Shown piece after piece: positions 9,545 through 45,883 of a stretch of DNA of 64,000 nt; positions within the stretch are counted from its first letter, which is position 1; the number at the start of each line of letters is the position of its first letter. The DNA comes from an uncultured Candidatus Saccharibacteria bacterium (GTDB taxonomy: Bacteria; Patescibacteriota; Saccharimonadia; Saccharimonadales; UBA4665). Position numbers and translations under genes: made by a program. The notes beneath the pieces were generated by a model. The model ran no database searches, was not told the origin of the DNA, and worked only from the letters and a program-made list of their open reading frames with translations. Where the stretch lies: the NCBI GenBank assembly GCA_963749175.1, contig CAVVLM010000006.1, positions 15,558 through 79,557 on the forward strand. Reading direction: 5' to 3'.

Positions 9545-11323
9545 ATGAAAGAAATAATTCGAATAGTTAAATTCACTGGTTCGCTATGGCGTTATTACAT
9601 CGTCATATCGGTTTTTACGATCCTGCTGGCCGGTATGACCCAGTTGCAGCCGCTATTTACTAAAGGCGCGATTGACCAGATTACCAAAGCCATTGGCCAC
9701 GGTCACGCTAACGTCAAGTTAGTGGCGATTTTTGCAATCCTAATCTTTGTTACTGATGTTGCCCAAACCTTCTTTAGTAACATCGGCGGCTATTTTGGCG
9801 ATATGATGTCAGTCAAGCTGCAGCAGGTGTTTAGCTCGCGTTACTACGAGCACCTGCTAAGCTTGCCGCAGTATTATTTCGATACTGAGCTTACCGGAAA
9901 AATAATCAACCGGATGAACCGCGGCATCGGCCAAATCGGCCAATTCATGCAAATGCTCAGTAATAACTTCCTGCAATTTGTCTTTAGCACCATTTTCTCG
10001 CTAATAATTGTTGCTCTATATTCCTGGCCGGTAGCCTTGATGCTATTTGCCCTTTTCCCGATATTTATTCTATTTACCACTAAATCAAGCAAGCGTTGGC
10101 AGAAATACCAGAAAATCATCAATCAGCAGCAGGACGTGGCCAGCGGCCGCTTTAATGAGACTATCGGTCAAGTCAAAGTCGTCAAAAGTTATCTTCAGGA
10201 ACGCCGTGAGCTAAGTTTCTTCCGCAGCCGTTTTAACAAAATCGTTACTACTACCAGCCCGCAGAGTAAATTCTGGCACCGCCAGGACATTTATCGTCGT
10301 CTGGTATTAAATACCATCTTTTTAGGTGTCTTTGTCTATATCTTTGTCCAAACGGCCAATGGACACTTTTCACTCGGTACGATGGTGCTGTTAATCCAAT
10401 ACGCCATGTTAATTCGCATCCCGATATTTACTATCAGTTTCTTAGTCGATCAGACTCAGCGGGCGGTAGCTAATACCCGTGATTATTTTGAAGTCATGGA
10501 CGTCCAACCAGAAATTACCGATTCACCTAACGCTAAACCGTTAAAAGTTAAAAACGCCATGATCCAGTTTGATAACGTTAGCTTTGCCTACGATAAAACG
10601 CCAGTCTTAACCGACCTGGGCTTTACTATTGAACCGGATAGTAAAATTGCCCTAGTCGGCGAAAGCGGCGAAGGTAAAACGACAATTACCAGCCTACTGC
10701 TGCGCTTATACGAACCGCGCAGCGGCCAGATTATGATTGACGGCCAAGACATCACTAAAGTCACCCAAGCCAGTTTACGTAATGCAATCGGTGTAGTTTT
10801 CCAAGACCCGTCACTGTTTAGCGGCACGATCAAAGAAAATATTACTTATGCCAATCCCAGCGCTAGTGAGGCCCAAATTATTAAAGCTGCCAAAGCGGCT
10901 AACGCTGATGAGTTTATCGACAAGCTGGATAAAGGCTATTTAACCGAAATCGGCGAACGCGGACTTAAGCTTAGCGGCGGCCAAAAGCAGCGGATTGCCA
11001 TTGCCCGGGCTTTCTTAAAAGATGCACCGATCTTGATTCTCGACGAAGCCACCAGCAGCCTAGACAGTAAAAGTGAGCGGCTAGTGCATATCGGACTGGA
11101 ACGGCTGATGAAAGGCCGCACTACCTTGATTATTGCCCACCGCCTATCAACCATCCAAAATGTTGACCAAATTATTACGCTGCAAGGTGGCACAATTGAC
11201 GAAATCGGCTCGCCGGCCGATCTGGCAGTCAGCGGTGGTATCTACAGTCAACTATTGCGCTTGCAGCGTGGCCATGGCGAGCTCAAACAAAAACGGCTTA
11301 AAGAATTCGAACTTTCGAATTAA
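9545..11323 (+). CDS. ABC exporter, fused permease/ATPase (MsbA/lipid-multidrug type)
   Basis: Six N-terminal TM helices. Walker A GESGEGKTT, signature LSGGQKQRIAIARA, Walker B ILILDEATSSLD, H-loop IAHRLST. Confidence 0.95.
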   Translation: MKEIIRIVKFTGSLWRYYIVISVFTILLAGMTQLQPLFTKGAIDQITKAIGHGHANVKLVAIFAILIFVTDVAQTFFSNIGGYFGDMMSVKLQQVFSSRYYEHLLSLPQYYFDTELTGKIINRMNRGIGQIGQFMQMLSNNFLQFVFSTIFSLIIVALYSWPVALMLFALFPIFILFTTKSSKRWQKYQKIINQQQDVASGRFNETIGQVKVVKSYLQERRELSFFRSRFNKIVTTTSPQSKFWHRQDIYRRLVLNTIFLGVFVYIFVQTANGHFSLGTMVLLIQYAMLIRIPIFTISFLVDQTQRAVANTRDYFEVMDVQPEITDSPNAKPLKVKNAMIQFDNVSFAYDKTPVLTDLGFTIEPDSKIALVGESGEGKTTITSLLLRLYEPRSGQIMIDGQDITKVTQASLRNAIGVVFQDPSLFSGTIKENITYANPSASEAQIIKAAKAANADEFIDKLDKGYLTEIGERGLKLSGGQKQRIAIARAFLKDAPILILDEATSSLDSKSERLVHIGLERLMKGRTTLIIAHRLSTIQNVDQIITLQGGTIDEIGSPADLAVSGGIYSQLLRLQRGHGELKQKRLKEFELSN

Positions 11324-11340
11324 TTCTCGTTTATATAAAT

Positions 11341-11394
11341 CTTCGTTTCGCCGTTTACGGCTCATCAGCACAACTCATATATTTGTGAACGAAG
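11341..11394 (-). ncRNA. hammerhead ribozyme, type III (divergent copy)
   Basis: Minus-strand RNA: CUUCGU U|CACAA AUAUAUGAG UUGUG CUGAUGA GCCG UAAA CGGC GAA ACGAAG. Complete core, closed stems I and II, open 6-bp stem III. Confidence 0.8.
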
Positions 11395-11529
11395 TAATTA
11401 GGACAGAGTATATGGAGCGGGGAGAAATTTGCCATAAATGGCAGGCTCGACATATATCTGTCCAATTTGTAGAGTTAACGAGTGATCAGTAGATGGTCAT
11501 GAAAAAAGTAGCTTTGTAGATTAGGAGGC

Positions 11530-11841
11530 CTAAGAGGCTTCCTCAACCAGATCCATCAGTATGGCCTGCGTGCGGTTAGACAACCAGTTGAAAAGATCCG
11601 AATTCGTCCACAGCGTGAACGCAAAGTGCCTTTCGTCGGCAAGGTCGGACTCGACGTGGGTGGTGTTGTTTGGCTTGCCGTTTGCGAGAAAGACCAATGT
11701 GCTTAGGTGTGGCAATAATTGCCCGCGGATAAATTCATTGTCAACAGGCAGTTGGTATTCAACTGTGTTTAGCTGAATTATGCCCTTCGACACCTCCATA
11801 TAAAACTCTTCTGGCCGTGACTTAACCGATACGATTATCAT
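11530..11841 (-). CDS. hypothetical protein
   Basis: The ORF track starts at TTG 11853. The ATG at 11841 is preceded by GGGAGAG. 103 aa. Confidence 0.6.
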   Translation of the reverse strand: MIIVSVKSRPEEFYMEVSKGIIQLNTVEYQLPVDNEFIRGQLLPHLSTLVFLANGKPNNTTHVESDLADERHFAFTLWTNSDLFNWLSNRTQAILMDLVEEAS

Positions 11842-11925
11842 TAACTCTCCCAATTGTTAAGAGCGCTTACTTATATTTCAGTGCTCAGATGCGACTAATC
11901 GAAATGGTCTCAATAAGTCACGATT

Positions 11926-11963
11926 AGAATAACATATAATAAAGTATAAGTCAATTTTCTAGA
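11926..11963 (-). promoter_or_regulatory. sigma70-like promoter with TCTAGAAAA upstream block
   Basis: Minus strand: TCTAGAAAA-TTGACT-17 nt-TATTCT, upstream of ORF 11530..11841. The same TCTAGAAAATTGAC block occurs at 12910..12924. Confidence 0.45.
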
Positions 11964-12155
11964 ATATAGAAAAGATTATAATAGAAAAATAATCTTATAT
12001 GGCAGTTCACTAAACCTACTATCTTGATAATAAGCTTGGGGAACTGCCAGGAAGAGAAAGAAATAAGAATTGAGTGGATGCATAAATGCATACCATACTC
12101 GACGCTTAAGTCATCTCTACTTCCTGGGAAGCTCTCTGTTAACCGAATTGCGGCT

Positions 12156-12500
12156 TTAGCTCCATAGACTCTTTCGTCCGAGAACCAACCCTCCACAGTT
12201 GTAGAGTTCGATTTCTTCATCGGTAAAGTCCACAGGCTCAACTTCTGGAATGATACTACGCGGATCGTCGCATCTTACCCAGACTTCTTGAGGGTCGAAC
12301 CTCTCGAACTTGAAGTCGTGGCGGATATATCCGTTTTGGGCAGTGTATGGTGCGAGCTCATCGCCCAAAATGCCGTTTACCGGAAATGCCAATCTCAGCA
12401 AATTGATGTCGTACCCACGCCAAAGAATGTACTGGAAAGTGTATGGGTTTGTAACCCCGATGGTAACTGTCTCGACGACACGATACATACCATGGCGCAC
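12156..12500 (-). CDS. hypothetical protein
   Basis: 114-aa ORF. Downstream on the minus strand, an AAGATTAT/ATAATCTT hairpin plus T-rich run looks like a terminator. Confidence 0.6.
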   Translation of the reverse strand: MRHGMYRVVETVTIGVTNPYTFQYILWRGYDINLLRLAFPVNGILGDELAPYTAQNGYIRHDFKFERFDPQEVWVRCDDPRSIIPEVEPVDFTDEEIELYNCGGLVLGRKSLWS

Positions 12501-12575
12501 GAAAACTCCTTTAAGTAAAATTCAGGGACATTATCAAAGCTGACAAGATTTACTGCAAGGAGTGTTTTAGCTCCT

Positions 12576-12737
12576 TTAGTGCATGATGTAAGCTATTACC
12601 AAGAGCAAGAGGCCGAGAGCGCCAAAGAAAGTGGCCTCAGTCAACGTGCCAGCAGATAGGGTTTTTAGAGCCCTAATGCCTATGGCGCAACCAAAGAAAA
12701 AAATAATTAATCCGATGATTGCAAGAGCGAATCGCAA
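12576..12737 (-). CDS. small membrane protein (53 aa, below ORF-track cutoff)
   Basis: TTG start 7 nt after AAAGGA. Translation MRFALAIIGLIIFFFGCAIGIRALKTLSAGTLTEATFFGALGLLLLVIAYIMH gives two TM helices. Confidence 0.45.
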   Translation of the reverse strand: MRFALAIIGLIIFFFGCAIGIRALKTLSAGTLTEATFFGALGLLLLVIAYIMH

Positions 12738-12770
12738 TTTAACATCCTTTCATGAGTATGATAGACACAA

Positions 12771-12821
12771 TCTGTTGAAGAACAGCTAACGCGACATTAT
12801 CGTGTTAATAGTTCTTCAACA
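12771..12821 (-). promoter_or_regulatory. 12-bp perfect hairpin in the 5' leader
   Basis: CTGTTGAAGAAC (12771..12782) pairs with GTTCTTCAACAG (12810..12821). It lies between the promoter at 12887..12915 and ORF 12576..12737. No U-tract. Confidence 0.4.
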
Positions 12822-12840
12822 GACATATTACAGAGAGCTT

Positions 12841-12924
12841 GTTAATGTGCATCGGAGGTATTTGACAGCCTCAACGAAACATGGTTATAATAGCATAAGT
12901 ACAATATATTGTCAATTTTCTAGA
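12841..12924 (-). promoter_or_regulatory. promoter plus conserved leader element (copy A)
   Basis: Minus strand: TCTAGAAAA-TTGACA (12915..12910)-17 nt-TATTAT (12892..12887). Leader CAUGUUUCGUUGAGG...CCUCCGAUGCACAUUAAC is shared with 39681..39768. Confidence 0.5.
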
Positions 12925-12946
12925 TTTTATCCGAATGTACTAATAA

Positions 12947-14314
12947 TCAACTATTTGTAATCTGAACCAAACTGTGAATTACAGGGGTTAAATTATATTT
13001 ATCAATATTTATAATCGGTTTTTTAAATATGTAAGCCGAGTATGAAAAGTAATCTTGGGCCGCAGGATCGGTTGAGTCATAATCTCGGTAAGAAATAACA
13101 CCAATCTGAGTATTGCCGGTAAGCTTAACTTGGCCAGTAAAAGTAATCGTATTCAATTGTTGTCCCTGCAAATAACCCATACAGCCCATTTGACCCGGTG
13201 CGATGCAGCTATTGATGGCACCGGTTATAGTGCCAGTAGCATTATAAACGTTATAATCATGACTGGCTGGATAAGAAAAAGCGCTGCTGCGAGCCGTATA
13301 GGTAGTGCCGTTGCCATCCATGACGATATTATTTGGCACCACAAATTGATTAGTGCCAGCACCGCCATAATCACCCCAGCCCGTGGCATCAAGCTCCAAA
13401 TTGCCGCTGTTTAAAATGGTAATAGTACTATTACCAAGTCCATCAATTGAACTAGGCGCCGTAGTGCTGCTGGAGCTAGTGGCCGCCTCACCCAAGTGAA
13501 GTACTGCCCCACTGGCGATAGTGGTATTACCCGATAAATTAGGACTTGATGTCGGGAAGTTGGCATTGCTGTTAGGGTCTAAATAAATATTGCTTTTGCC
13601 GCTTAGGCTTTGGAATATGATTTCGCTACTAGGTGCGGCTTGGTTAGTTTGCAAATGGACGGTTGAGCCCTGGCTTAAATAGGTTTTACCCTGAAAGCTT
13701 AAAAGCAGCGTATTTTTAGATTGAATTTTAATTGAAACATTTTTGCCAAAAGTAATGTCATTATAAATAATGGCAATAGAATTATTTCTAATATTGTTTA
13801 TTATTTGCCCGGAGACGTGCAAGTTATCACCGCCGATATACGGTGACGCATTGCTGGTAGCGGCATTTGCTGCAACCGGACTGTTAAAAACGATATTTTT
13901 AACACTTAAATTACGAATATTATCCCAAAGATAAACCGTATAGTTAGTATTATATGGTTGCGGCACAACAGTCGAATGCTTGGCGTTAATATCTTTGATA
14001 TTAAATACCAGCGTTTGCCCGTTAATTGGTCGGCCAAGTGACCAGTTTTTGGTATTACTCCACAAATCATCATTGCCTTTACCGGTCCATGAATTGGTGG
14101 CATGGCTTAAAATGACATAGCCGATAATGCTCAAAATAAATAAAAAACCAATAGTTCCCAGCAATACTAACGATACCGTTTTGAGTTTTGACCTTTTAGG
14201 TTTAGCGTCGGGTTTTAGAGCCATAGTAGAATCGCTAGTCGGTGTCGGGTAAATCTTAGCCGGGTCCATATTAGCAACAAAAGCTGGTTTTTCAGGTTTG
14301 TCAGACTGTTCCAT
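12947..14314 (-). CDS. membrane-anchored surface protein, Asn/Thr/Ser/Gly-rich beta-rich ectodomain
   Basis: 455 aa. Basic N-terminal tail, one TM helix (TVSLVLLGTIGFLFILSIIGYVIL), then a repetitive N/T/S/G-rich sequence. Confidence 0.7.
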   Translation of the reverse strand: MEQSDKPEKPAFVANMDPAKIYPTPTSDSTMALKPDAKPKRSKLKTVSLVLLGTIGFLFILSIIGYVILSHATNSWTGKGNDDLWSNTKNWSLGRPINGQTLVFNIKDINAKHSTVVPQPYNTNYTVYLWDNIRNLSVKNIVFNSPVAANAATSNASPYIGGDNLHVSGQIINNIRNNSIAIIYNDITFGKNVSIKIQSKNTLLLSFQGKTYLSQGSTVHLQTNQAAPSSEIIFQSLSGKSNIYLDPNSNANFPTSSPNLSGNTTIASGAVLHLGEAATSSSSTTAPSSIDGLGNSTITILNSGNLELDATGWGDYGGAGTNQFVVPNNIVMDGNGTTYTARSSAFSYPASHDYNVYNATGTITGAINSCIAPGQMGCMGYLQGQQLNTITFTGQVKLTGNTQIGVISYRDYDSTDPAAQDYFSYSAYIFKKPIINIDKYNLTPVIHSLVQITNS

Positions 14315-14384
14315 ATTTCTTCATCACAGTAGCACAGAAAGTCAGCTGGGTTCAACTAATATTGAGCAGTATTTTAGATAATTA

Positions 14385-14930
14385 TTAATCTGATTCAACA
14401 GCCCGCTCAGTGGCGACTTTTCGGCTGATAATATCCATAATTTGTTTGCCAACCGAATGTGAATAGCCCATTGGTTCGTCGTTTTGTTCAATCATCAAAT
14501 CAATATATTCCATATAAGCCAGGGACATGTTATAGAAGTTTAGAGGTATGCCCGATTCGCTTAAAGTGCTTCTAAGTTTATCGGCGGTATGAGCTACGGC
14601 CTGTAAGATCTCCTGACGCTTAGATTCGGCTCTACTATTGTCTTCCAAGTCGTCATAACTAAAACCCACCAAAGCCGATTCATAATGGAAAATACTTAAT
14701 GTCCGTAAGCTATCATAACGGCCTTTAGAATCAACTCTCGAAAACTCCAGCTGCATTGGGCCGTCGCCGTTTGGATTATCTGGAGTCGTTTGTAACTCCT
14801 TAACTATTCCTATAAAAGTTGGAATTAACCACTCATCGGTAACCGATAAATTTTCCGGATCACGGTCAAACAGTAGGATTACAAATTCTCGGGGATCGGC
14901 TGTGGCGGCTAATTGTTCGCGTATTTCCAT
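14385..14930 (-). CDS. hypothetical acidic protein
   Basis: 181-aa ORF with ATG start. Confidence 0.65.
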   Translation of the reverse strand: MEIREQLAATADPREFVILLFDRDPENLSVTDEWLIPTFIGIVKELQTTPDNPNGDGPMQLEFSRVDSKGRYDSLRTLSIFHYESALVGFSYDDLEDNSRAESKRQEILQAVAHTADKLRSTLSESGIPLNFYNMSLAYMEYIDLMIEQNDEPMGYSHSVGKQIMDIISRKVATERAVESD

Positions 14931-14987
14931 TTCAATATATTATAATATTATGTAAGTATTGTAAATTATATTAAATCTTTAATCTAT

Positions 14988-15389
14988 TTATTGGTCGTAT
15001 GAGAATGGTTTTAGAGTATCAATGACTCTTTGACCAAATGTGTGATTTATCATGCAACCGGCACAGCGCAGACTGGCATCGCTGGGGCAATCTAGCACTA
15101 CTAATCTTTCCACTTGTTCCACGTGCTCATGTTCCGGAATGCACCCAGTCCAATGCAAAGATATTGATTGATCGGCTACGTGTAAATTATTATCTTCCGG
15201 TGTTTTGCCGCTTTCATCTAGAAGTGCAGGCATTTTTGATACTTGAAATCTAATTGCCGATATAGCAACACCTGCGTTGATTTCCGGGCCCATTGTAGTC
15301 AATGAGTCGAAAACTTCTTTATAGGGCAAGCAACTCTCATTATGTAACGGACCGGGCCTACCTATTTGTTTGCCAATTGCGGTTACCAT
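14988..15389 (-). CDS. hypothetical Cys/His-rich protein
   Basis: 133-aa ORF; HWTGCIPEHEH...DCPSD...CAGC. Confidence 0.6.
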   Translation of the reverse strand: MVTAIGKQIGRPGPLHNESCLPYKEVFDSLTTMGPEINAGVAISAIRFQVSKMPALLDESGKTPEDNNLHVADQSISLHWTGCIPEHEHVEQVERLVVLDCPSDASLRCAGCMINHTFGQRVIDTLKPFSYDQ

Positions 15390-15556
15390 AATAATTGCTC
15401 CCTAAATTACCTTATAGTTAATTATATAGCCAATATTGGTTAACAACATAATATTTTTGGCATACATCAAAATTTACTATTAACGATTGTATACAAAATT
15501 CCCTTAAATATAATTAAACCAAATATATTTGTTATTAATGCTAAAATATAGTAATC

Positions 15557-16036
15557 ATGAGTTTAAGCATTGAAAAACGATTATTTCGGGAGACAACTGC
15601 CCTACTATTAATTGGCGGATTAGCCCTAGAAGGTTGTTCTAATAACTCTTCTAGAACTAGCATTCAAACTTCGGGTAAGGTAGCTTGTAAGACAGTTAAG
15701 TTTGAGGCATTAAAAGGAAGTCCGGCAGAAGTTGAGATCGGAGTTTATCCAGAACTAGCTAATGGAAAATTTGTTGTTACTAGATGGCAGTACATCGGTA
15801 ATAAGCCGATCACTGGTACGCCAGTATCTGGAGCAATTATGGAATTTCCTAGTCATAATATTTCTAAAATTAGCAACATGTCGACAATTTCCATACCAAC
15901 TTCTCAATCAGAAACAGTAGTTTTCGCATCAGTAAACGAGAATGGTCAAAATATTTCTTGTCCGCCCACTATCATGTATTTCAATAATAAAACGTATACT
16001 GCTATTCCTCAGTTGCCACCCAAAGATAGAATTTAA
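15557..16036 (+). CDS. secreted protein / possible lipoprotein
   Basis: N-terminal hydrophobic segment ending LALEGCSNN (atypical lipobox). 159 aa. Confidence 0.6.
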   Translation: MSLSIEKRLFRETTALLLIGGLALEGCSNNSSRTSIQTSGKVACKTVKFEALKGSPAEVEIGVYPELANGKFVVTRWQYIGNKPITGTPVSGAIMEFPSHNISKISNMSTISIPTSQSETVVFASVNENGQNISCPPTIMYFNNKTYTAIPQLPPKDRI

Positions 16037-16183
16037 TAATATTAAGGATGCACTTCTTATGCCAGTTTAAGCTTTATTTGCTATTTCGTTGACAATTATG
16101 GCGTAAATTTGGATCTATGATCGTAGGTAGTATATATTAGAAAACTAACTTCGTTTTTATTATTAATATAGTAAAAATGTTGC

Positions 16184-16768
16184 ATGTCTGAAACTCTTCC
16201 GCCAAATCGATATCTATCTCAAGCAGAAATCAATAAATATGGATTTACCGAGCGTTTAATGGCGGATACGGCTGATATTAATAATTTCCAAGCCAATCTC
16301 CTAGCTTATTTTGGCCCCAATTTAATTAAACCTTTGCCAGAAGCGCCGGATCTGGTATTTCTAGGCAATTATGAATCAGCCCGGGTAATTATAGATAACA
16401 GTATCAGCCATGGCCTTGGACGAGCGGCAGTAATGGCGACAATTTGGGAAAAGATGCCTAAAGACTTATGCCAAACCCAATATGGGACAGTTAGCAGGAT
16501 TGAAGTCAAGACTTTCATTAACAGTTATCAAGGACATATTCTTCTGCACATTGACCCGAAAGAACGTTTTATTAGCCAAAGAGCTGAGCTAACAGACGTA
16601 ATTGATGAAATATATGACGCCAAACAGCAATGGCGTCAGTTTAATCCGACGCTGCGCATAGCACGCTTACTTAATACGGCATTTTCGACTGAAATAGAAA
16701 GTTATTTAGCTAACCCAAAGCTTATTCATTTTAGTAGATTGCTCCCCAAAAAACATAAATCAAAATAA
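16184..16768 (+). CDS. hypothetical protein
   Basis: 194-aa ORF with ATG start and lysine-rich tail. Confidence 0.65.
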   Translation: MSETLPPNRYLSQAEINKYGFTERLMADTADINNFQANLLAYFGPNLIKPLPEAPDLVFLGNYESARVIIDNSISHGLGRAAVMATIWEKMPKDLCQTQYGTVSRIEVKTFINSYQGHILLHIDPKERFISQRAELTDVIDEIYDAKQQWRQFNPTLRIARLLNTAFSTEIESYLANPKLIHFSRLLPKKHKSK

Positions 16769-16795
16769 ATTTATCACCTCAAAGTTTATTTATTG

Positions 16796-16846
16796 TTACT
16801 TTCGTCCTTTTGGACTCGTCAGCATGAACGCACATTCATGGAGTAA
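16796..16846 (-). ncRNA. hammerhead ribozyme, type III
   Basis: Minus-strand RNA: UUACU C|CAUGAA UGUGCG UUCAUG CUGACGA GUCC AAAA GGAC GAA AGUAA. All invariant core positions present. Confidence 0.85.
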
Positions 16847-16956
16847 GGCGATGGTGTATCGTTGGGTGCAAGCACAGTGCTCGCTCGACCAACGGTACAC
16901 CCCTCGGGTTCCAGCATAGCAGGCTTTATTCCCTTTAATTTTTAGGGAATAAAGTT

Positions 16957-17235
16957 TTATGGCAAAAGCCAGGAGTGTATGCCGATCATCTCGCTGATAA
17001 TGCCGTTAAGCAGCATTATGCAAGTGCCAATCAACAGAAGAAGGAGGATCAACTTGGTAAGCAGGCGGAGATTACTGTTGGGCCTGATTAACAAAAAGAG
17101 TATGAAAAGCGCAAAGCAAAAACCGACAATGAACCACATCGGGAAAAACCTCCTAATATCTTGTTGCCAGAGCAATCGGATAAGCTCAGAAAATGTTGGA
17201 TTAGTGGCCAGTATAAGTTTGAGCCAATTGCTCAA
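16957..17235 (-). CDS. small membrane protein
   Basis: 92-aa ORF with TTG start and no clear RBS; an internal ATG (MWFIVGF) is possible. Two to three TM helices. Confidence 0.5.
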   Translation of the reverse strand: MSNWLKLILATNPTFSELIRLLWQQDIRRFFPMWFIVGFCFALFILFLLIRPNSNLRLLTKLILLLLLIGTCIMLLNGIISEMIGIHSWLLP

Positions 17236-17316
17236 TCAAATGTCAGCTCACTCTGGGTTCTCATCACCACAGATATATTTTTACAACTAAACATATATGC
17301 ATAATGATGAGAGAAG

Positions 17317-17380
17317 GGCGAGTGCGACGGGTGTTACGAAAGGGGGCCTTAAGGGGCACCGTCCGATCGTAGCACTCGCC
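17317..17380 (-). terminator. GC-rich 9+7-bp hairpin 3' of the 17481..18888 gene pair
   Basis: GGCGAGTGC (17317..17325) pairs with GCACTCGCC (17372..17380); inner GACGGGTG/CACCGTC stem. Followed on the minus strand by CUUCUCUC. Confidence 0.4.
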
Positions 17381-17480
17381 ACACTCAAACCCTTACCCCT
17401 GGTATTCCCAGAGGATTCTAACTGAATTTTATGGCTTCAGATTGCCGCGTATGTTTCGGTGAATTATTTAGGAGGTTTTC

Positions 17481-17870
17481 CTAGGATTGTCCCAAAATTA
17501 CGAACATCTTTCCGGAAATTCCGTTTGGCTGTTCATAGGGGACCCATTGGAACACCACGTGCTCACCTGGTTGAAGCGAGGCTCGGCCGGTAGTGTAGAC
17601 TGGATCGGAAGTACAAGGGGCGGGACTAGACGGGAATGCGATGCACGCTTCCAGACCCTGGGCATCTACCTTGACGATAGTGCCGTTATAAGTCTGAGGT
17701 GTTGACGTTGAGTTGGCTGAAAAGAGCCAAGCACCAATGGCAAAACCTACCAAAAACGTACATGCAACATACAAAACAATCAAGTGAGTCGGGAAACCCC
17801 GTTTAGCTCTGCCGACTGCTCTGCCTGCTGTTCTGCTCCCTGATACTCGGGTGACATTTCTGGTTGCCAT
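17481..17870 (-). CDS. membrane-anchored protein (Arg-rich N-terminus, one TM helix)
   Basis: 129 aa; HLIVLYVACTFLVGFAIGAWLF helix. One nt separates it from the upstream ORF. Local GC is visibly higher than the flanks. Confidence 0.65.
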   Translation of the reverse strand: MATRNVTRVSGSRTAGRAVGRAKRGFPTHLIVLYVACTFLVGFAIGAWLFSANSTSTPQTYNGTIVKVDAQGLEACIAFPSSPAPCTSDPVYTTGRASLQPGEHVVFQWVPYEQPNGISGKMFVILGQS

Positions 17871-17871
17871 T

Positions 17872-18888
17872 TCAGCACCAAGCCCAGGTCAGTCCAAGAC
17901 TCACAGTTATCGAGTCACTTACATTGGGCGGAGAGTGGATGATGTCAACATCAGGAGCACTTTGGGTGTTACCTGAGCAACCTCTCCATTCCGCACCGGA
18001 TCCTGTCGTGGGGTCTGACCATTCTGGTCCAATGCCGCTAGGACAGACTGTTTGCGAAGATCCAACTCCAATGCCATTCCAGCCGACGGATTCGTTATAG
18101 GTTTGGCAAGAACCAGTATTGACGAAGCCGCTAGGCTGCCATTCAACAATGGAGTTTCCCTTCACATAGTTGTCGTTGGCATCGAGCCTGGTCAGATTAT
18201 TCCACCAGGTGCCATTGTGACCCGAAGACGTGATCGAATCGCCGATGTACCAATCACCACCGTTTTGCTGAACGAGTGTCTGAATGTCACATGCTCGACC
18301 AGTTGCTTGTCCACCGTTGGCGTGCAGAATCCATACGCAAGGCGTACCGATAATTGTCGTAGCCGCGGTAGACGACGTGACACTTTTAGACAATCTTGCC
18401 TTAACAGCAGTACCGGTAGATGAAACGGCTTTAAAAGCCACGCCGGTAGTAGTAGCCATTGCTTGAGCGACCATTTCCTCAGCTTGAGACTGAGAAAAGC
18501 CGACGGCGATGGCATTGGCGTAGACGTCGCTGAGGCTAAGACTTGCCACAGTCCCGTTAGTCTTCGTGTTCGGGGTGGTAATTGATGCCCCGGTTGCGCT
18601 GTAGGAGTAGGTCATGCCTGGCGCGCCGATGAAGGTATAGCTGTTGCACCCAGCTTTGATGGATGTCAACGTTTGTCCGTTGACGTGTGTCTGCTTGATG
18701 ACAACAGCCTTGTTCGCGGCGGTGTCATTTAACTTCGTATTACAGGAAGGCGCCTTGATATGGGTGCCTTTGGGTGCGGGTTGAGAACTAGTGGGCGTAG
18801 AAGCGCCGGCACTAGCCGATTGGACTACAATTACTGCAAGCGGTAGTGTCAGGCAAGCCGTCCACAACCGAATACGATTTACTCGCAT
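17872..18888 (-). CDS. secreted protein of unknown function
   Basis: The ORF track starts at 18933. The ATG at 18888 follows AAGGAG and gives signal peptide MRVNRIRLWTACLTLPLAVIVVQSASA. Cys- and Gly/Thr/Ser-rich. GC-richer island. Confidence 0.7.
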   Translation of the reverse strand: MRVNRIRLWTACLTLPLAVIVVQSASAGASTPTSSQPAPKGTHIKAPSCNTKLNDTAANKAVVIKQTHVNGQTLTSIKAGCNSYTFIGAPGMTYSYSATGASITTPNTKTNGTVASLSLSDVYANAIAVGFSQSQAEEMVAQAMATTTGVAFKAVSSTGTAVKARLSKSVTSSTAATTIIGTPCVWILHANGGQATGRACDIQTLVQQNGGDWYIGDSITSSGHNGTWWNNLTRLDANDNYVKGNSIVEWQPSGFVNTGSCQTYNESVGWNGIGVGSSQTVCPSGIGPEWSDPTTGSGAEWRGCSGNTQSAPDVDIIHSPPNVSDSITVSLGLTWAWC

Positions 18889-19134
18889 TACTCCACACTC
18901 CTTAGGAGGGTACTCGGGATTCCGTCCTAACATGATGCTGAATTACAGTTTTACATAATTCACCTTTTGTTAAGGTACCATACTAATATTAGATAATCAT
19001 AAAATCAAGTAAATGTCAATAGTCATTTAACCTTAAACATGTTAAAAATATGTTAAATGACTAGACTGATTACAATAAGCATATAATTAAAAACTCTGAA
19101 AATCAGTGATGTAGCGTTTTAAATTAACAAATAG

Positions 19135-19578
19135 TTAATTTTCTCTCATTAACCAGTAATCATAATGACGGGTCGGTAGTTTGATGCGGACTATTAATAC
19201 CGGTGTTTCATAGCTGCCGCCAGTAATAGTGCCTTTAAGTACGCTATATGACAAGTCTGGCGTCTGTGCACTGAATTTACTACCCTTATTAATAGCTAGC
19301 GTTACAGTAGCCGTTTCAGCGGCTTCCGGCTGCCTAAATTCAGTGGCACCGATAAAGCCCCTACTAACCCCAGCATGATAGCGTAAACTTTGGTAATCAA
19401 ATAACTCTTCCAGCGGGGCACTGTAAGCTGCGACTTGAATATCATTTGTCCAACCAGCTGTACCAACAAAACCGTCAACAATCGGGAAACATTCTCCTGG
19501 TTGACAGTTCTCAACTAACTCTTGTAAAAACTCTGGATCCAGAGTTGGTTGTTGATTATAACTTTCTGGGCAAGACAT
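19135..19578 (-). CDS. hypothetical protein
   Basis: 147-aa ORF with ATG start. Confidence 0.65.
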   Translation of the reverse strand: MSCPESYNQQPTLDPEFLQELVENCQPGECFPIVDGFVGTAGWTNDIQVAAYSAPLEELFDYQSLRYHAGVSRGFIGATEFRQPEAAETATVTLAINKGSKFSAQTPDLSYSVLKGTITGGSYETPVLIVRIKLPTRHYDYWLMREN

Positions 19579-25267: not shown

Positions 25268-28200
25268 TTACGGTGAAGTCAGGCTGACATTATCCATAGT
25301 AGCGGTGCTTAATGCCCCAGCATTATGCGAACAGACAAACAAACCAATCGTAGCCGGCGAGCTTAAAGTCAACGTTGTTGAACCAACTGTAGTCCAAGTA
25401 TTTCCATTAGCTGACGAGTAAGCCGTAACAGTACCGCCAGTAATACTTAATCTAAGCCAGCCGTTGGGGAAAGTATAATTGCCACCGCCAACACTGCCAT
25501 TAAAGTTGTACTGGAAAGTTATGCCATTACCTGGCGTAACGGCCAGTAGTGCATACGGCGAACCAGCCGTAGTACTTTGTTTGATCATGATCCCGGCTTT
25601 AGCCCAAGCGCTAGTATTAGTCTGTGAGCTAACCCGGGCGGTAATCGTTTCGCTGCCGTTAACCAGTGGTTGCGAGACATAATTGAATTGATCTAAATTA
25701 CCGCCGCCAGTACCCCAAATATCATTACCGCCACCGTTAATAGTGAATACACCACTGCTGTAAGTGGCCGATCCGGCCGGTGTCGGATTGCCAACATCGG
25801 CATCAGTCCAGGGCGAAGGTAAACTAGCGCCAGCGGTAATGTTTACATTATCGATTGTGGCCGTACTTAGAGCCCCGGCGTTATGTGAGCAGACGAACAG
25901 TCCAATCGTGGCCGGGGCTGCTAAATTAAGGGTTGTGGCACCGATTTCATTCCAAATAGTACCATTGGTTGAGCTGTAAGCAGTAACCGTATTGCCAGAA
26001 AGACTTAGCTCCAGCCAAGCATTTGGAAATGTGTATGCGCCTCCACCAATACTGTTAGTAAAGTTAGACTGGAAAGTGATGCCATTACTTGGTGTAACCG
26101 CTAGCAGCGCGTACGGTGAGCCGGCTGTCGTACTTTGTTTGATCATAATGCCAGCTTTCGCCCAAGCACTTGAATTAGTCTGTGAGGTTACTCGGGCAAT
26201 AATATTCTCGTTACCGCTAAAGGGTTGTGAAACATAGTTAAACTGATCAAGATTGCCGCCGGGTGTACCCCAGATATCGTTGCCACCGCCATTGATGGTA
26301 AATACACCGCTGTTATAAGTGGCAGAGCCGGAAGGTGTAGGTGTGCCAACATCAGTATCAGTCCAGGGCGACGGCAGACCACTGCCGCTGCCACCACCAG
26401 TAACACTGACATTATCAATCGTGGCAGTACTTAGAGTGCCGGAGTTGTGGGCGGTTACGAATAAACCGATAGTGACCGCCCCAGAAATATCAATTGAGGT
26501 AGTGCCGATTGGTGTCCAAGTAGTACCGTTAGTAGAAGTAGAAGCAGTTATAACATTGCCAGCTCGGCTTAACTCCAGCCAAGCATTCGGAAAGGTATAA
26601 GCTCCACCACTAGTGCTATTAGTAAAATTTGACTGGAAAGTTATGCCATTACTGGGTGTTACCGCCAGCAGTGCGTAAGGCGCGTTAGCAGCATTACTTT
26701 GTTTGATCATAAGACCGGCTTTAGCCCAGGCACTAGTATTGGATTGTGCGGTAACTCTGCCGATAATGCTGCCATTGCCAGTTAGCGTTTGCCAGACATA
26801 GTGAGACTGGTCAAGGTTGAAATAAGGTGTACCCCAGATATCATTACCACCACCGCTGATGGTAAATACCCCACCACTATCGCTGGCCGAACCAGCAGGA
26901 GTCGGATTGCCAATATCACTGTCTAGCCATGGACTGGGTAGGTTCGGATTGGGTGTTACTAGTGAGTAATTAGCAAACGTAACGGTATTAGTTAAGAACT
27001 GGCTATGAGAAGTATCAGTTAACCCAGCTAAGGCGGTTGAGGGCAAAACTACGGTTATTGGAGTTCCTGGAAAAACGGTCCAAGTTACACCATCAGCAGA
27101 AGTATAGGCAGTAAAGTTATTGCCGGAGCGAACTACTTGGAGCCAGATCGGCGCTCCACTGCTGACACCAGTTAATTGTTGGGTGCTGCCACCTTCTGTA
27201 CTGCGATACTGGACAACAGTGCCATTGCCCGGGGTCGCCAGAATTGCAAAATAAGCTGCCGCTGGGTCAGCTGCACCATTAGTATTATCTCTTATCATAA
27301 TGCCAGCCTTAGCCCAAGGGTCGGTGTTTTGCTGGGAAGTAACTTCAGTTGTAATGGTTCCGTTTCCAGCCATAGTTTGGGCTTCATAGTGGAAGTCATC
27401 AGCAGGTCCATACAAGTCTTTGCCGCCGCCTAGTAGTGAATACACCCCGTCGACATAATACTGCGAGCCGGCTGGCAGCGTATTGCCGCCAATGTCTTCG
27501 CATATCCAGCTGGCCGGGCAAATGTTCGGCGCTGGCGGTGCTCCGGCTACCACCGACAGACTGTCAGCAGTTGTGGCATTAGGCGATCCATAGTTGGCTG
27601 AAGTTACAGCATAGCCAGCTGTTATTGCGCCGCTTAAGTTGCTAAGCGTCTGGCTAGAGCCAATTATCGGTCGCCAGTTATTGCCGTCGCTTGAAGTATA
27701 AGCCGTAAATGTATCGCCGGAGCGGACAATCTGTAAGTATTGTGGCAAACTGCCGCTGACACTGACCACGGAATTAGCCGGTAATCCGGCTTGAGTGCGC
27801 GACTCCACCATAATGCCGCCATTTTGCGGGACGGTAAAGGCGCCGTAATAGGCCGAATTCGGTGAGTTGCTGGCGCGCATCATTAATCCGGTCAGAGCCG
27901 AGCCTGAGGTGTTATTTTGACTGTCAATCCTAACTGTAGCCGTGGTGTCGCCAGTAATCGGTTGCGATAGGTAGTGGAACTGATCAGAAGTGCCTTCTAT
28001 CCCATTTCCCGTGCCGGTAATTGTCCAATTGTTGCCAGTTAATGTTTGATTGCCAACCAGTAGCGGATCGCCAATATCTTGGCAAGTCCAACTGCTAGGA
28101 CAAGCATTAGATGATGGCGTGTCTTGGGGAGTATTGCTTGGCGTTCCGATAACGACGTTAGATATAGTTGCCGTACCGGCTGTTGGGCCATTGGCCCCAG

Positions 28201-30127
28201 AAGCAACCGCTAAGCCAATCATTGAAGCATAGGGCATGATTACGGTTGCTGTAGACCCGGGTATTAGGGTGTAGTTCACGCCGTCAGTCGACGTGGCAGC
28301 GCTTAGTATATCGCCTATGTCCTGGATTTCTAGGTAAATTGGTGGATTGCCGGGATTGGAATCGGTTTGAACTGTGGTCTTGCCATTGGGCGTGTTACGA
28401 TACTGCACGTTTATGCCATTGGGCGTTACGAATACCCCATAATACGGCGAGCCTGGCAGATTATTTTGCCTAATCATTATTCCCGTTTGGGCGCTAGCCG
28501 ATATACCCTGCTGGGATACCACTTGAGCGCTAATTTGGGCATCGCCAGAAGTTGTCTGACTCATTAATCTAAATGAATCACTGGCTCCAGCAATACCGTT
28601 GCCACCGACTGATATATTCCAAGTGCCACTACTAACGGTTTCGGAACCGGAGGGTAGCGGATTGCCAATATCCTGGCAAGTCCAACCGGTTGGGCAATTA
28701 GGATCAGGCGGTGGAGTTAATGGTCCAGTTGTCGGCATCGCCCAGGCATAAATCGTGCCAAAGGTATTGCCAGTTACTATAGTCCCCTCACCAATTGAAG
28801 GCGCGGCAAAGATCCAACTACCCGGTCCGGTATCGTAACTATAAAGCCGTTGGCCATTTGTCGCGTTTAGTACCTCCAAAGCACTGCCGCCGCCATCGAT
28901 AATCATACCGTTCATATAAGTAATGGCGCCAATCACCGGTCCGGTTAAGGCATGTTGCCAGATAACGTTACCGTTATTAGGATTCCAAGCTTGAACCGAT
29001 CCGCTAACACCAACGCCGTTAATAGTTGTCAATCCTCCCGCCTGGTAAATCGTACCGTTGGCAAAGGCTGCACTGGATACCGTGCTGTAACCGCAAGCGG
29101 CACAATCATTACCCACCGCAATTTGCTGTTGCCAAACCGGTCCAGCGGCTAAGTTAGACCGTAAAAAGGCATAGGTATTGCCATTTTTATTAGAGGCCAT
29201 CACGAGCTGACGGCCATTGCTGTCGCTAAACAACGTGGCTGAAGTCGTCCAGTCGGAATCGGCTACCACGTCGGCTTCCGGCAAGTGCCAGTAATCGACT
29301 ACTTGCATGGTATCAGGATCAATCGCCACAATTGCCTGGGCAAAGGTTTGAGTATCGGATTGCTCAGTGCCGGTTACGGCAAAAATCCGGTTAGTTGTCG
29401 GGTCATACGACGGCGATGTCCAGATGCCGCCGCCAACCTGGCCGTTAGGAACCATATTAAGCGTCGATACCACTGCGCCAGTACTAATATTTACTTTAAT
29501 CAGTTGGCCTTGGACTAACGGACAGTCACCCAAGCTGGCTACCCCGATATAGGCGTAGCCATTAAATATGAGCGGGCTGGACCAGTTATAATGTCCGCCA
29601 GCCGCACTGCTATCGCCGGTATATACGTCCCATAACACAGCCCCAGTAGTGGCATTTAGGGCGTACCAATAATTAGCTCCGCCACCGACATAAACCACTC
29701 CATTTAAAACTGTCGGTGCTGAGGATACACCGGCACTTTGCGGATTACAGTCTGATTCGCCAGTAGTGGTACCTAAATTATCACTCCAGAGAACTGCTCC
29801 AGTTTTCAGGTTAAAGGCGTATTCATTACCGTTCCAGGATCCAACATAAGCCACGCCGTTAACGATTGCCGGCTGCGAAGCAATTGGTGCGCCGGTTGCA
29901 TATGACCATTGCTCAACTAACTGGGAAACATTACTGGTTGAAAATGAGGTATCAGTGCTGGCGCCGGTACGGGAATTGTCGTGTAGCGAAGTTGTCCACT
30001 CGTCGGTCGTCGCTGACGCGTAGGCAGGTACCAGCACTATACTCAGGCCGAATAATACTAAAATTGATATTAATAATTTGGCTTTTAAACCATGCCCTAC
30101 CCATGAGCGAATCCTGCTTAAATACAT
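25268..30127 (-). CDS. giant secreted protein: signal peptide, PQQ-like beta-propeller, six tandem ConA-like/DUF1349-like lectin-type domains
   Basis: 1619 aa. Signal/anchor LLISILVLFGLSIVLVPAYASA. Propeller repeats (VYVGSWNGNEYAFNLKTGAVLW type). Six units of about 190 aa with the motif ...GGGNDIWG...DQFNYV...AWAKAGIMI.... Confidence 0.9.
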   Translation of the reverse strand: MYLSRIRSWVGHGLKAKLLISILVLFGLSIVLVPAYASATTDEWTTSLHDNSRTGASTDTSFSTSNVSQLVEQWSYATGAPIASQPAIVNGVAYVGSWNGNEYAFNLKTGAVLWSDNLGTTTGESDCNPQSAGVSSAPTVLNGVVYVGGGANYWYALNATTGAVLWDVYTGDSSAAGGHYNWSSPLIFNGYAYIGVASLGDCPLVQGQLIKVNISTGAVVSTLNMVPNGQVGGGIWTSPSYDPTTNRIFAVTGTEQSDTQTFAQAIVAIDPDTMQVVDYWHLPEADVVADSDWTTSATLFSDSNGRQLVMASNKNGNTYAFLRSNLAAGPVWQQQIAVGNDCAACGYSTVSSAAFANGTIYQAGGLTTINGVGVSGSVQAWNPNNGNVIWQHALTGPVIGAITYMNGMIIDGGGSALEVLNATNGQRLYSYDTGPGSWIFAAPSIGEGTIVTGNTFGTIYAWAMPTTGPLTPPPDPNCPTGWTCQDIGNPLPSGSETVSSGTWNISVGGNGIAGASDSFRLMSQTTSGDAQISAQVVSQQGISASAQTGIMIRQNNLPGSPYYGVFVTPNGINVQYRNTPNGKTTVQTDSNPGNPPIYLEIQDIGDILSAATSTDGVNYTLIPGSTATVIMPYASMIGLAVASGANGPTAGTATISNVVIGTPSNTPQDTPSSNACPSSWTCQDIGDPLLVGNQTLTGNNWTITGTGNGIEGTSDQFHYLSQPITGDTTATVRIDSQNNTSGSALTGLMMRASNSPNSAYYGAFTVPQNGGIMVESRTQAGLPANSVVSVSGSLPQYLQIVRSGDTFTAYTSSDGNNWRPIIGSSQTLSNLSGAITAGYAVTSANYGSPNATTADSLSVVAGAPPAPNICPASWICEDIGGNTLPAGSQYYVDGVYSLLGGGKDLYGPADDFHYEAQTMAGNGTITTEVTSQQNTDPWAKAGIMIRDNTNGAADPAAAYFAILATPGNGTVVQYRSTEGGSTQQLTGVSSGAPIWLQVVRSGNNFTAYTSADGVTWTVFPGTPITVVLPSTALAGLTDTSHSQFLTNTVTFANYSLVTPNPNLPSPWLDSDIGNPTPAGSASDSGGVFTISGGGNDIWGTPYFNLDQSHYVWQTLTGNGSIIGRVTAQSNTSAWAKAGLMIKQSNAANAPYALLAVTPSNGITFQSNFTNSTSGGAYTFPNAWLELSRAGNVITASTSTNGTTWTPIGTTSIDISGAVTIGLFVTAHNSGTLSTATIDNVSVTGGGSGSGLPSPWTDTDVGTPTPSGSATYNSGVFTINGGGNDIWGTPGGNLDQFNYVSQPFSGNENIIARVTSQTNSSAWAKAGIMIKQSTTAGSPYALLAVTPSNGITFQSNFTNSIGGGAYTFPNAWLELSLSGNTVTAYSSTNGTIWNEIGATTLNLAAPATIGLFVCSHNAGALSTATIDNVNITAGASLPSPWTDADVGNPTPAGSATYSSGVFTINGGGNDIWGTGGGNLDQFNYVSQPLVNGSETITARVSSQTNTSAWAKAGIMIKQSTTAGSPYALLAVTPGNGITFQYNFNGSVGGGNYTFPNGWLRLSITGGTVTAYSSANGNTWTTVGSTTLTLSSPATIGLFVCSHNAGALSTATMDNVSLTSP
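25271..28699 (-). repeat. six tandem ~550-575-bp coding repeats inside the giant gene
   Basis: Protein repeats R1-R6 start at aa 477. R4-R6 (25271..26941) are highly similar (LPSPW(T/L)D.D(V/I)G.PTP.GSA...), R1-R3 more diverged. Confidence 0.85.
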
Positions 30128-32878: not shown

Positions 32879-33094
32879 ATGACAACACTTAGTATTTCAT
32901 TGGATGATAAGTTAAAGAAAGAAATAGAACGTTTCTCTAAAGAAGACGGCGTTTCTAAGAGTGTAGTGGTACGTAGATTACTTCAACGAGCTTCATGGGA
33001 ACGGACTTGGAATAACATGTCTGCCCAGTTACGCATTAAGCTAGACGAACTGAATCTTAGCTCCGCGGATGATGTAGAAAAATATCTGGGATGA
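32879..33094 (+). CDS. ribbon-helix-helix (CopG-like) antitoxin
   Basis: 71 aa; N-terminal TLSISLDDKLKKEIERFSKEDGVSKSVVVRRLL is RHH-like. ATGA overlap with the PIN gene. Confidence 0.8.
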   Translation: MTTLSISLDDKLKKEIERFSKEDGVSKSVVVRRLLQRASWERTWNNMSAQLRIKLDELNLSSADDVEKYLG

Positions 33095-33522
33095 AACCTC
33101 TTCGAGTTGTATTAGATACTAATATCTATATTGCGGCAGCTCTAAACCCCCAAAGCATACTTTATAACTTAGTTGAGGATTCAGCTGCACATTATCTAGC
33201 TGAATACTATACATCACACGAAATTCTCGCTGAATTACAAAGCAAACTAGAGAATCGATTTAAATTCGATAGAGCCGATGTAGTTCGCTGGATAAATCAA
33301 TTAGAACAAGTTATTAAAGTAGTACGCCCCCAATTAAAATTAAATGTTATAGAACGAGATCCTGACGATAACAAGGTATTAGAGTGTGCACTTGAGGCCA
33401 AAGTTGATCTCATAATTACTGCTGACAAGGATTTATTGGTTCTAAAAGAAATTAATGGTATAAAAATAATACATACAAACTCTATAAAATTTATATTTCC
33501 TCAACTCAAAAAACCCAGATAA
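33091..33522 (+). CDS. PIN-domain toxin (VapC-like)
   Basis: VVLDTNIYIAA near the N-terminus, ECALEAKVDLIITADKDLL near the C-terminus. 143 aa. Confidence 0.85.
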   Translation: MKPLRVVLDTNIYIAAALNPQSILYNLVEDSAAHYLAEYYTSHEILAELQSKLENRFKFDRADVVRWINQLEQVIKVVRPQLKLNVIERDPDDNKVLECALEAKVDLIITADKDLLVLKEINGIKIIHTNSIKFIFPQLKKPR

Positions 33523-33573: not shown

Positions 33574-33960
33574 TTAGTTTACTTCTACAATATGCTTTTT
33601 TAACCACTCAACAATTTGTGGAATATCGAGGTGTTTTGTAGCTATTTCCACAGTAAAGTTTTCAATTTCTCCAGTTTTGGCTGTGAAATTAATTCCGTTT
33701 AATTCTAAATAGACTAAACCAACAAGTATAGCAGTTCTTTTATTGCCATCAACAAACGGATGGTCAGCAATGATACCCCTTATCATAGCCGCTACTTTTA
33801 CAACTATCCCCGGATATAATTCTTCGTCAAAAACATTTTGGGTTTGTGTTGCAATTGCAGCTTCCAGTCTGCCGAGATCACGTAATCCAATATCGCCACC
33901 AGTCGCTTCGATTACTAGAGCATGTAGTTCAAGCAACTGCTCAAGAGTTAGATTTATCAT
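33574..33960 (-). CDS. doc: Fic/Doc-family toxin (death-on-curing type)
   Basis: HPFVDGNKRTA Fic motif in a 128-aa protein. ATGA overlap with the upstream antitoxin. Confidence 0.9.
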   Translation of the reverse strand: MINLTLEQLLELHALVIEATGGDIGLRDLGRLEAAIATQTQNVFDEELYPGIVVKVAAMIRGIIADHPFVDGNKRTAILVGLVYLELNGINFTAKTGEIENFTVEIATKHLDIPQIVEWLKKHIVEVN

Positions 33961-35465: not shown

Positions 35466-35750
35466 TTAATAGAAAAATTTAGCAATTACTATAATAAGCA
35501 CTATTAACCCAAGAGCTTTTCGAAATTTGTTTAATCCCGTTGTTAACTCCATAAAAGCCCAAACAAAAATAAAAGCAGTACTTAATTGTCGACTGCCGTT
35601 TTTATAATTACCCACGGGTAGTATTAATGCTAGAATCTCAAAAATAATCCAACCACTCAGGGCAATATTGGGCTTTTGCCAAATTACAATTCGGCCACTT
35701 TTATCTTTGCAGAAATAACCAACAGGATCTTTCTTAATATTAGATAACAC
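35466..35750 (-). CDS. small membrane protein
   Basis: 94 aa, GTG start, three hydrophobic helices. Confidence 0.55.
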   Translation of the reverse strand: MLSNIKKDPVGYFCKDKSGRIVIWQKPNIALSGWIIFEILALILPVGNYKNGSRQLSTAFIFVWAFMELTTGLNKFRKALGLIVLIIVIAKFFY

Positions 35751-35820
35751 ATATTAAGCATACGCTTAGATAACTATTATCTGAAATGAAGAGTAAATTC
35801 ATATAAGACTTCATTGCATT

Positions 35821-35843
35821 TGGCTGGAGCGGAGGGATTCGAA
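35821..35843 (-). other. tRNA-Gln-like 3'-end fragment
   Basis: Minus strand TTCGAATCCCTCCGCTCCAGCCA, 19 nt 3' of hammerhead 35863..35916. Confidence 0.55.
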
Positions 35844-35862
35844 ATTAATATAAGCCTTAACT

Positions 35863-44669: not shown

Positions 44670-44907
44670 CATTCAACTTTCTACCGTCCAGTGGTAACTT
44701 TAAGAAAAACTGGCATAAAATTTATATAATATAGCCACAAAGTAAAGCATCCATGATACAAAATATACCAGATATCGGGATTCGGTATATTTTACCTTAA
44801 TTACCTCAGTTCTAATATGGTCTGAGGGTATAATTTCCGTCAAAAATTATTGACGATAATCACAATAATTTATTTGCTAAAGTTTTAATTATGGAGGCTT
44901 TTTAAGT

Positions 44908-45339: not shown

Positions 45340-45468
45340 GCCAGAGCTGTTCAACTACATTTAGCAGCTGCTTACAATAGTTCAGAGATTTCGATCGCCG
45401 ATTTGCCAAATGTTGGTTTGGAGTAAAAAATAATTAATAGCTAGTAAGCGCCTCGATTGAAAAATTAT

Positions 45469-45490
45469 AATACATCATGAATGATGTATT
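45469..45490. terminator. bidirectional intrinsic terminator
   Basis: AATACATCA-TGAA-TGATGTATT hairpin, flanked by an A-run upstream and TTTTCCCC downstream, between convergent genes. Confidence 0.55.
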
Positions 45491-45495
45491 TTCCC

Positions 45496-45768: not shown

Positions 45769-45883
45769 TTTGATTGTTTTGTCTCTAAAGCTAACCTACT
45801 TAATAGTAATATTACAACTTATGCTTAAACATAGATACCTTTAATAAACCAGAGAGCTGGTAAGTATAGGTACCTGTCTATAT

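Follow-up and report, generated by a model that had tools for sequence, protein, structure and literature searches.

Hundreds of hammerhead ribozymes have been identified in bacteria, many of them near prophage integrases, and several ribozymes flank one gene or a short block of genes (Perreault et al. 2011, PMC3088659). The acceptance criteria for a hammerhead include three helices that radiate from the core and canonical pairs next to it (PMC3088659). Bacterial self-cleaving ribozymes also cluster near each other (2019 review, PMC6765202), and clustered hammerheads are by now well documented in both bacterial and phage DNA (PMC3088659, PMC6765202). The function of bacterial self-cleaving ribozymes is largely unknown, the leading idea being the processing of polycistronic or 3'-UTR RNA (PMC6765202).

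The element described here, HH1, reads as a complete type III hammerhead ribozyme of 54 nt on the minus strand (11341-11394) of a stretch of 64,000 nucleotides, which was analysed as a whole and is referred to below as the window. Three sibling copies (HH2, HH3 and HH4) lie on the same strand, a grouping in line with how bacterial ribozymes are known to cluster (PMC3088659, PMC6765202). The window adds a clear hammerhead example, four in all, in a Saccharibacteria (CPR) chromosome. As a kind of element HH1 is not new, being one more instance of a well-known RNA class, and it will not surprise a specialist. In the searchable literature, no paper was found that joins hammerheads with Saccharibacteria or CPR bacteria, so the host lineage may be new while the element itself is not.

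Type III hammerheads from the intergenic regions of phages and prophages (RF00008, clan CL00010; PMC3088659) resemble HH1 in their core, their connectivity and their 4-bp stem II with an NAAA tetraloop. They too have a short stem III, occur several times per genome and follow closely on a stable hairpin. The differences lie in stem I, the cleavage site and the setting. Stem I of HH1 has 5 bp extended by A.G and U-A under a longer A/U-rich loop, whereas the phage copies have 7 bp and a GUGU or GAGU loop. HH1 has GUU as its cleavage triplet, in place of the GUC or GUA that prevail among phage type III copies. Unlike these, HH1 resides on a Saccharibacteria chromosome; its surroundings lack recognisable phage genes, and no cistron follows it.

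Parallels also exist outside phages. In the sTRSV hammerhead and the RiboJ insulator, as would be expected of HH1, type III cleavage removes the upstream context and leaves a structured 5' end. For ribozymes placed in bacterial 3' UTRs, cleavage changes the fate of the transcript, as the work is summarised in a later review (Felletti et al. 2017, cited in PMC6765202). These are viroid-satellite or engineered contexts, unlike that of HH1.

Sequence, fold and statistical support of HH1

Read from 11394 to 11341 on the minus strand, the HH1 RNA opens with the 5' strand of stem III (CUUCGU, 11389-11394), whose last nucleotide, U11389, is U16.1, followed by U11388. The stem I hairpin comes next (11369-11387), with CACAA and UUGUG enclosing the loop AUAUAUGAG, and its 5 bp are recovered by descriptor, fold and covariance model (CM) alike. 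It is followed by the catalytic core strand CUGAUGA (C3-A9, 11362-11368), by stem II (11350-11361), in which GCCG and CGGC form 4 bp around a UAAA loop, and by the core GAA (G12 A13 A14, 11347-11349). The RNA closes with the 3' strand of stem III (ACGAAG, 11341-11346), which begins with A11346 (A15.1) and forms 6 bp with the 5' strand. This order, with stems I and II closed and stem III open, is that of a type III hammerhead. By hammerhead numbering of the sequence, scission is predicted to fall between U11388 (H17) and C11387 (N1.1).

Stems III, I and II thus comprise 6, 5 and 4 bp without bulges, with 15/15 helix pairs intact. All pairs that flank the core are canonical, namely A11346-U11389 (A15.1-U16.1), G11361-C11350 (G10.1-C11.1) and C11387-G11369 (C1.1-G2.1). 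The core carries the residues that define the hammerhead clan (CL00010), C3 U4 G5 A6 N7 G8 A9 together with G12 A13 A14, and H17 is not G. In the CM alignment, stem I is extended to seven stacked positions (5 bp, A.G and U-A) closed by a 5-nt loop. The minimum free energy (MFE) structure of the isolated 66-nt HH1 RNA is the hammerhead three-way junction, and this junction remains the MFE fold with up to 80 nt of upstream context added. The original prediction had quoted the minus-strand sequence for this site, which matches exactly, and had described three helices of 5, 4 and 6 bp, an intact core, the topology of the other copies and a U-H cleavage context, with all of which sequence and MFE fold agree.

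Two further structural candidates were rejected. With downstream sequence included (171-nt context), 11326-11340 can pair with the 5' half of HH1 (11372-11393, minus strand) in an 'off' fold that is 1.9 kcal/mol stabler than the hammerhead fold, but shuffled downstream sequences pair equally well or better in 12% of cases. Relatives show nothing consistent at this helix, and it was dismissed as chance. A Watson-Crick pseudoknot between loop I and loop II of HH1 was also considered, and inspection gave no convincing complementarity.

One rival reading is that HH1 is a chance resemblance in AT-rich intergenic DNA. The silence of Rfam speaks for it: nothing is reported at HH1 at gathering thresholds, and RF00008 aligns locally with 19.8 bits, against a gathering score of 48.5, with a whole-window E-value >10. 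The siblings fare no differently, with 30.7 bits for HH3, 20.9 bits for another and one undetected (HH2), and clear phage members score 38.9-45.3 bits, likewise under the 48.5 cut-off. Since siblings and clear phage members also fall below it, this cut-off is uninformative for the phage-type family; the Rfam gathering score is a database threshold, not a biochemical criterion. RF00008 at its gathering cut-off misses a large phage-type family, and routine annotation therefore leaves such sites blank.

Searches with a type III descriptor speak against chance. The descriptor combined CUGANGA, GAAA, U16.1, an H other than G, and stems of at least 4, 3 and 4 bp. In the 64-kb window it found HH1 and two siblings, missing HH3 because of its bulged stem III. 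Lenient as it is, the same descriptor matched in just 1/300 dinucleotide-preserving shuffles of the window (0.0033 per 64 kb). Even with looser limits, it had no match in 951 kb of related-genome loci except in L001, which is a second assembly of the same sequence as the window. The bare motif CUGANGA...CGAAA occurs four times on the minus strand (at 11346, 16800, 35868 and 38598), a number reached in 0/100 shuffles.

An independent covariance model gave a further line of evidence. Pattern scans of IMG/VR contigs yielded 126 distinct phage type III hammerheads (loci L096-L372), and the model, R1, was built from their alignment and the canonical structure, with window sequence excluded. The window was searched with filters off, and the E-values are rough, the calibration having been shortened. 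HH1 (11341-11394) scores 48.8 bits over model positions 1-53, with an E-value of about 6e-12 under this rough calibration, a result that bears out the original prediction on the covariance-model check it had proposed. HH2 (16795-16847), HH3 (35863-35915) and HH4 (38593-38645) score 57.7, 50.2 and 56.4 bits, respectively. The next-best match in the window has 12.2 bits, and the highest-scoring one across 990 kb of sequence that surrounds ABC exporter orthologues, mostly Saccharibacteria, has 15.2 bits. These scores, set against such a background, identify HH1 as a bona fide member of the phage-type family. A 24-nt segment of HH1 is moreover identical to phage hammerheads, as described below. 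Shuffles and covariance model effectively refute a chance origin, which is ruled out for practical purposes, and we hold with high confidence that HH1 is a genuine type III hammerhead of a family abundant in phages.

Sibling copies and relatives in phages and metagenomes

All four hammerheads of the window lie on the minus strand, with the three siblings within 27 kb of HH1 and adjacent copies 2.7-19 kb apart. HH2 (16795-16847) lies 27 nt from the stop of the convergent gene 16184-16768, HH3 (35863-35915) is intercistronic, and HH4 (38593-38645) is found at the 3' end of gene 38735-39565 and faces convergent plus-strand ORFs. The siblings have the type III topology, the core and the 4-bp stem II with an A-rich tetraloop in common with HH1, and their CM scores are similar. 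In contrast, no helix sequence is common to HH1 and the siblings, whose stem I is CAUGAR/YUCAUG and whose stem II is GUCC-AAAA-GGAC. Over 56 nt, HH2-HH4 are 84-88% identical to one another, and in stem I of one copy an A-U pair is replaced by G-C, a compensatory change. Their common part is only the ribozyme itself, of roughly 56 nt, and the flanks are unrelated.

HH1 had originally been called divergent, with stems that share no sequence with the other three copies. This holds for the helices of the siblings, as the comparison above indicates, but not for the wider family: the CM score of HH1 (48.8 bits) is close to those of the siblings (50.2-57.7 bits), its core and stem II recur in phages, and it has type III relatives elsewhere. 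A circular-RNA or retrozyme-like arrangement of the four copies was also considered, and was rejected on the grounds that they are 2.7-19 kb apart, with opposite-strand genes between them and no reverse transcriptase.

Relatives of HH1 have been identified in both phage and metagenome contigs. An exact copy of the 24-mer that spans its core and stem II (CUGAUGAGCCGUAAACGGCGAAAC) is found in 14 phage contigs, all with type I hammerheads, and also in the metagenome loci L387/L399. The phage type III copies show free covariation in stem II under NAAA loops, GCCG-AAAA-CGGC being found in one of them, and some of the loops are UAAA.

A metagenome scan for UGAG placed 5 nt before the core, combined with an NAAA loop II, returned 26 loci, and 26/26 are hammerheads. 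For example, L393 (7467-7522) carries a type III copy with stem I CGUAC/GUACG, stem II GUCG-UAAA-CGAC and an R1 score of 41.2 bits. Its loop I, AUACAUAUGAG, differs from that of HH1 solely by a 2-nt insertion. L387/L399 are also of type III, with a stem II identical to that of HH1 and stem I UGCG/CGCA (4 bp in L387). Together with the viral copy L221, these relatives resemble HH1 in a short stem I (5 bp; 4 in L387) capped by A.G and U-A, in a long A/U-rich loop I that ends in GAG, and in a UAAA loop II. Stems I and III, in contrast, are entirely different from those of HH1, and stem II differs in L393 and L221. L393 and L387 have a same-strand gene downstream, unlike HH1. The stems of the five HH1-like sequences were compared by eye, the MAFFT alignment being structurally wrong at the 5' end.

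The surroundings of these relatives give some indication of where they occur. A neighbour of the L393 copy is an AAA ATPase whose named homologues, at about 47% identity, are from CPR phyla, a weak hint that an HH1-like subclass may circulate in CPR bacteria. In L387, the Rfam int-alpA RNA is found on the minus strand (1977-2047) with 36.1 bits, against a gathering score of 35.8, at 1.1 kb from the HH1-like hammerhead. This suggests a phage or integrase context for the L387 copy.

The type I phage hammerheads (L082-L095 and L375-L409; stem II GCCGUAAACGGC or GUCGUAAACGAC) have the identical 24-nt core and stem II in common with HH1, as well as a 5-bp stem I by the core, a UAAA loop II, and an A-R dinucleotide (2.7/2.6) 5 nt upstream of C3. 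They differ in being circularly permuted, with stem III closed and stem I open, the opposite of HH1. These features suggest that a tertiary contact between stem I and loop II may be common to HH1, its type III relatives and the type I phage copies, within a small sample. They also suggest that one design of tertiary contact may appear in circularly permuted topologies, that is, in the type I phage copies and in HH1. In the generic scan, UAAA cases were too few to relate the identity of loop II to the A-G dinucleotide. Many of the type I phage hammerheads come from human-gut metagenomes.

Multiple copies on one molecule are also seen in phages. Single IMG/VR contigs (L098, L112, L134, L338 and others) hold at least three type III hammerheads spaced 0.3-2 kb apart. 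Such multi-hammerhead phage contigs are consistent with the cutting of long transcripts into gene-sized pieces.

Gene context and possible role

Directly 5' of HH1 lies an extended imperfect hairpin (11396-11467, minus strand; predicted fold), 8 nt from the predicted post-cleavage 3' end. The 80 nt upstream of HH1 fold with -24.5 kcal/mol, below the 5th percentile of 80-mers in the window, and the 171-nt context has a folding z-score of -4.3. The hairpin upstream of HH2 (16849-16906) is stronger, at -31.2 kcal/mol, while that of HH4 is smaller. This association is also found in phages, where 78% of the 126 copies have a hairpin of -10 kcal/mol or lower within 40 nt upstream, compared with 12% of 40-mers drawn at random from these contigs (Mann-Whitney p = 2.5e-43). 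Downstream of the phage hammerheads, the next 40 nt are unusually unstructured, and in many of the phage contexts that were printed the downstream sequence runs into an AUG, in some cases with a purine-rich RBS-like motif before it. Hammerhead-associated hairpins are without U-tracts.

Upstream of the hairpin, on the same strand, is an orphan ORF of 103 aa (11530-11841) with a GGGAGAG RBS-like motif before its ATG, whose 3' UTR would hold both hairpin and HH1. It ends 135 nt upstream of HH1 and has no homologue among 5.8 billion proteins. It is not gene-called in the second assembly, and its coding status is uncertain. From the other side, a convergent ABC exporter gene (9545-11323, plus strand; Pfam ABC_membrane and ABC_tran) reaches its stop at 11323, leaving a 17-nt gap to the 3' end of HH1. 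A plus-strand ORF (11133-11492) overlaps the 3' end of this gene. The distances to both genes had been given correctly in the original prediction, which had also pointed out the overlapping plus-strand ORF.

HH1, HH2 and HH4 each lie at the 3' end of a run of minus-strand genes, with the convergent stop 17, 27 and about 100 nt away, respectively, a pattern that carries no statistical weight with n=4 sites. HH3 is intercistronic, as in phages, and HH1 has no same-strand ORF downstream. The genes that neighbour the hammerheads are orphans without Pfam or PHROG matches, and 40 ORFs of the neighbourhood, checked for prophage context with PHROGs and Pfam, include no phage hallmark gene. The segments 11530-19578 and 35466-47383 are taken up by long runs of small orphan ORFs that match neither Pfam nor PHROG and lack counterparts on the contigs of the closest relatives; all four hammerheads lie within or at the edge of these runs.

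A possible course of events at HH1 can be outlined from this arrangement. Minus-strand transcription through the 3' UTR of ORF 11530-11841 would produce an RNA that folds as the three-way junction and cuts itself between U11388 and C11387. Self-cleavage by internal transesterification is established for the hammerhead class, and the same chemistry would apply here. The upstream product would be an mRNA with a 2',3'-cyclic phosphate at its 3' end, 8 nt beyond the hairpin. A 5'-OH, base-paired in stem I inside the folded ribozyme body, would begin the downstream product, which would continue antisense to the 3' end of the ABC exporter gene. The hairpins look like 3'-end protectors, not classical terminators.

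From the order of hairpin and hammerhead, and from the predicted ends of the products, we infer a transcript-processing module, which would leave the upstream message with its 3' end protected and would uncouple it from read-through RNA at the convergent junction. The association with hairpins and the placement at convergent ends together offer a concrete hypothesis for the role of bacterial hammerheads. Two features of the locus count against the module. HH1 is not followed by a same-strand gene, leaving the 'leader-processing' half without a client, unlike in the phage copies, and the upstream ORF is an orphan skipped by the gene caller. We put forward 3'-end processing or insulation of the upstream transcript as a tentative role for the pair, one that may well prove wrong.

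A more specific proposal is that the hairpin-hammerhead pair serves the CPR host as a ribozyme-based device for 3'-end formation or insulation at convergent junctions, which we consider unlikely. If true, such a device would stand in for intrinsic terminators, or supplement them, and would restrict antisense read-through, and the chromosomal, host-domesticated use of a phage-type module would be one not described before.

The position of HH1, HH2 and HH4, which face convergent genes at the short distances given above, would also suit a ribozyme-assisted terminator, in which the 5'-OH end feeds a 5'-3' exonuclease 'torpedo', or the release of a stable antisense RNA through which the ABC exporter mRNA is modulated. 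In window 1-20 kb, consensus terminator-like sites number 25, compared with 17.8 +/- 4.8 in shuffles, and this lack of enrichment would be accommodated by such a reading. An RNase J1 step is part of the destabilisation of glmS mRNA. The destabilisation of an mRNA by ribozyme cleavage is itself on record for glmS, going by the work as cited in PMC6765202. Against the torpedo, the new 5' end left by a type III hammerhead is paired in stem I, which should impede a 5' exonuclease and shield the fragment, and for both variants the positional bias, at four sites, lacks statistical weight. Terminator and antisense functions are both very doubtful as the role of HH1; processing of the upstream transcript is the reading we prefer.

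Comparison with related genomes provides the setting for one more alternative. The orthologues of the ABC exporter place the window in Candidatus Saccharimonadales (TM7, CPR), and a contig scan around them gave 80 loci. The nearest orthologues among 5.8 billion proteins are 84-86% identical in amino acid sequence. On the contigs of these nearest relatives, a histidine kinase or GH26 gene lies downstream of the ABC gene, and the neighbours differ on both sides, with essentially no window gene in common, which makes these loci uninformative for the conservation of HH1. The sole other copy of the HH1 locus is that of the second assembly, L001.

With its neighbouring genes being orphans and its region not syntenic with the nearest relatives, HH1 might be an inactive or functionless relic, part of a phage-type module that was acquired horizontally with the surrounding orphan genes and merely looks intact. 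The lack of a downstream same-strand gene, unlike the phage arrangement, and the GUU triplet, uncommon in the family, would agree with such an origin. All core positions and the 15 helix pairs are intact, however, which is unexpected under neutral decay. The three siblings are intact too, with their compensatory change in stem I, and the CM score of HH1 is comparable to those of working-type family members. A relic is accordingly quite improbable. Taken as a whole, the account of HH1 as a genuine type III hammerhead, with transcript processing as its most likely role, is the best explanation of the locus, and we regard it as probably correct.

Other features of the window

Several further features of the window were recorded alongside the hammerheads. 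Internal DNA repeats of about 555-590 nt (families D1-D4 and D6) occur in a minus-strand ORF of 1619 aa (25268-30127), along with DUF1349, PQQ/beta-propeller and GH43_C2-like domains. This ORF probably encodes a large surface protein. The GC content of this segment is about 0.50, compared with about 0.40 in the rest of the window.

HH3 has a PIN-domain gene (33091-33522, plus strand) and a Fic/Doc gene (33574-33960, minus strand) at a distance of 2 kb. The relative L139 encodes a protein 84% identical to the Fic protein, whose gene is among the very few in the window that are common with relatives.

Back-to-back sigma-70-like promoters, one perfect and one near-perfect, are found at 12862-12915, in the gap from 12737 to 12947. 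The plus-strand promoter reads TTGACA-18-TATAAT, and the minus-strand promoter reads TTGACA-17-TATTAT with a TG.
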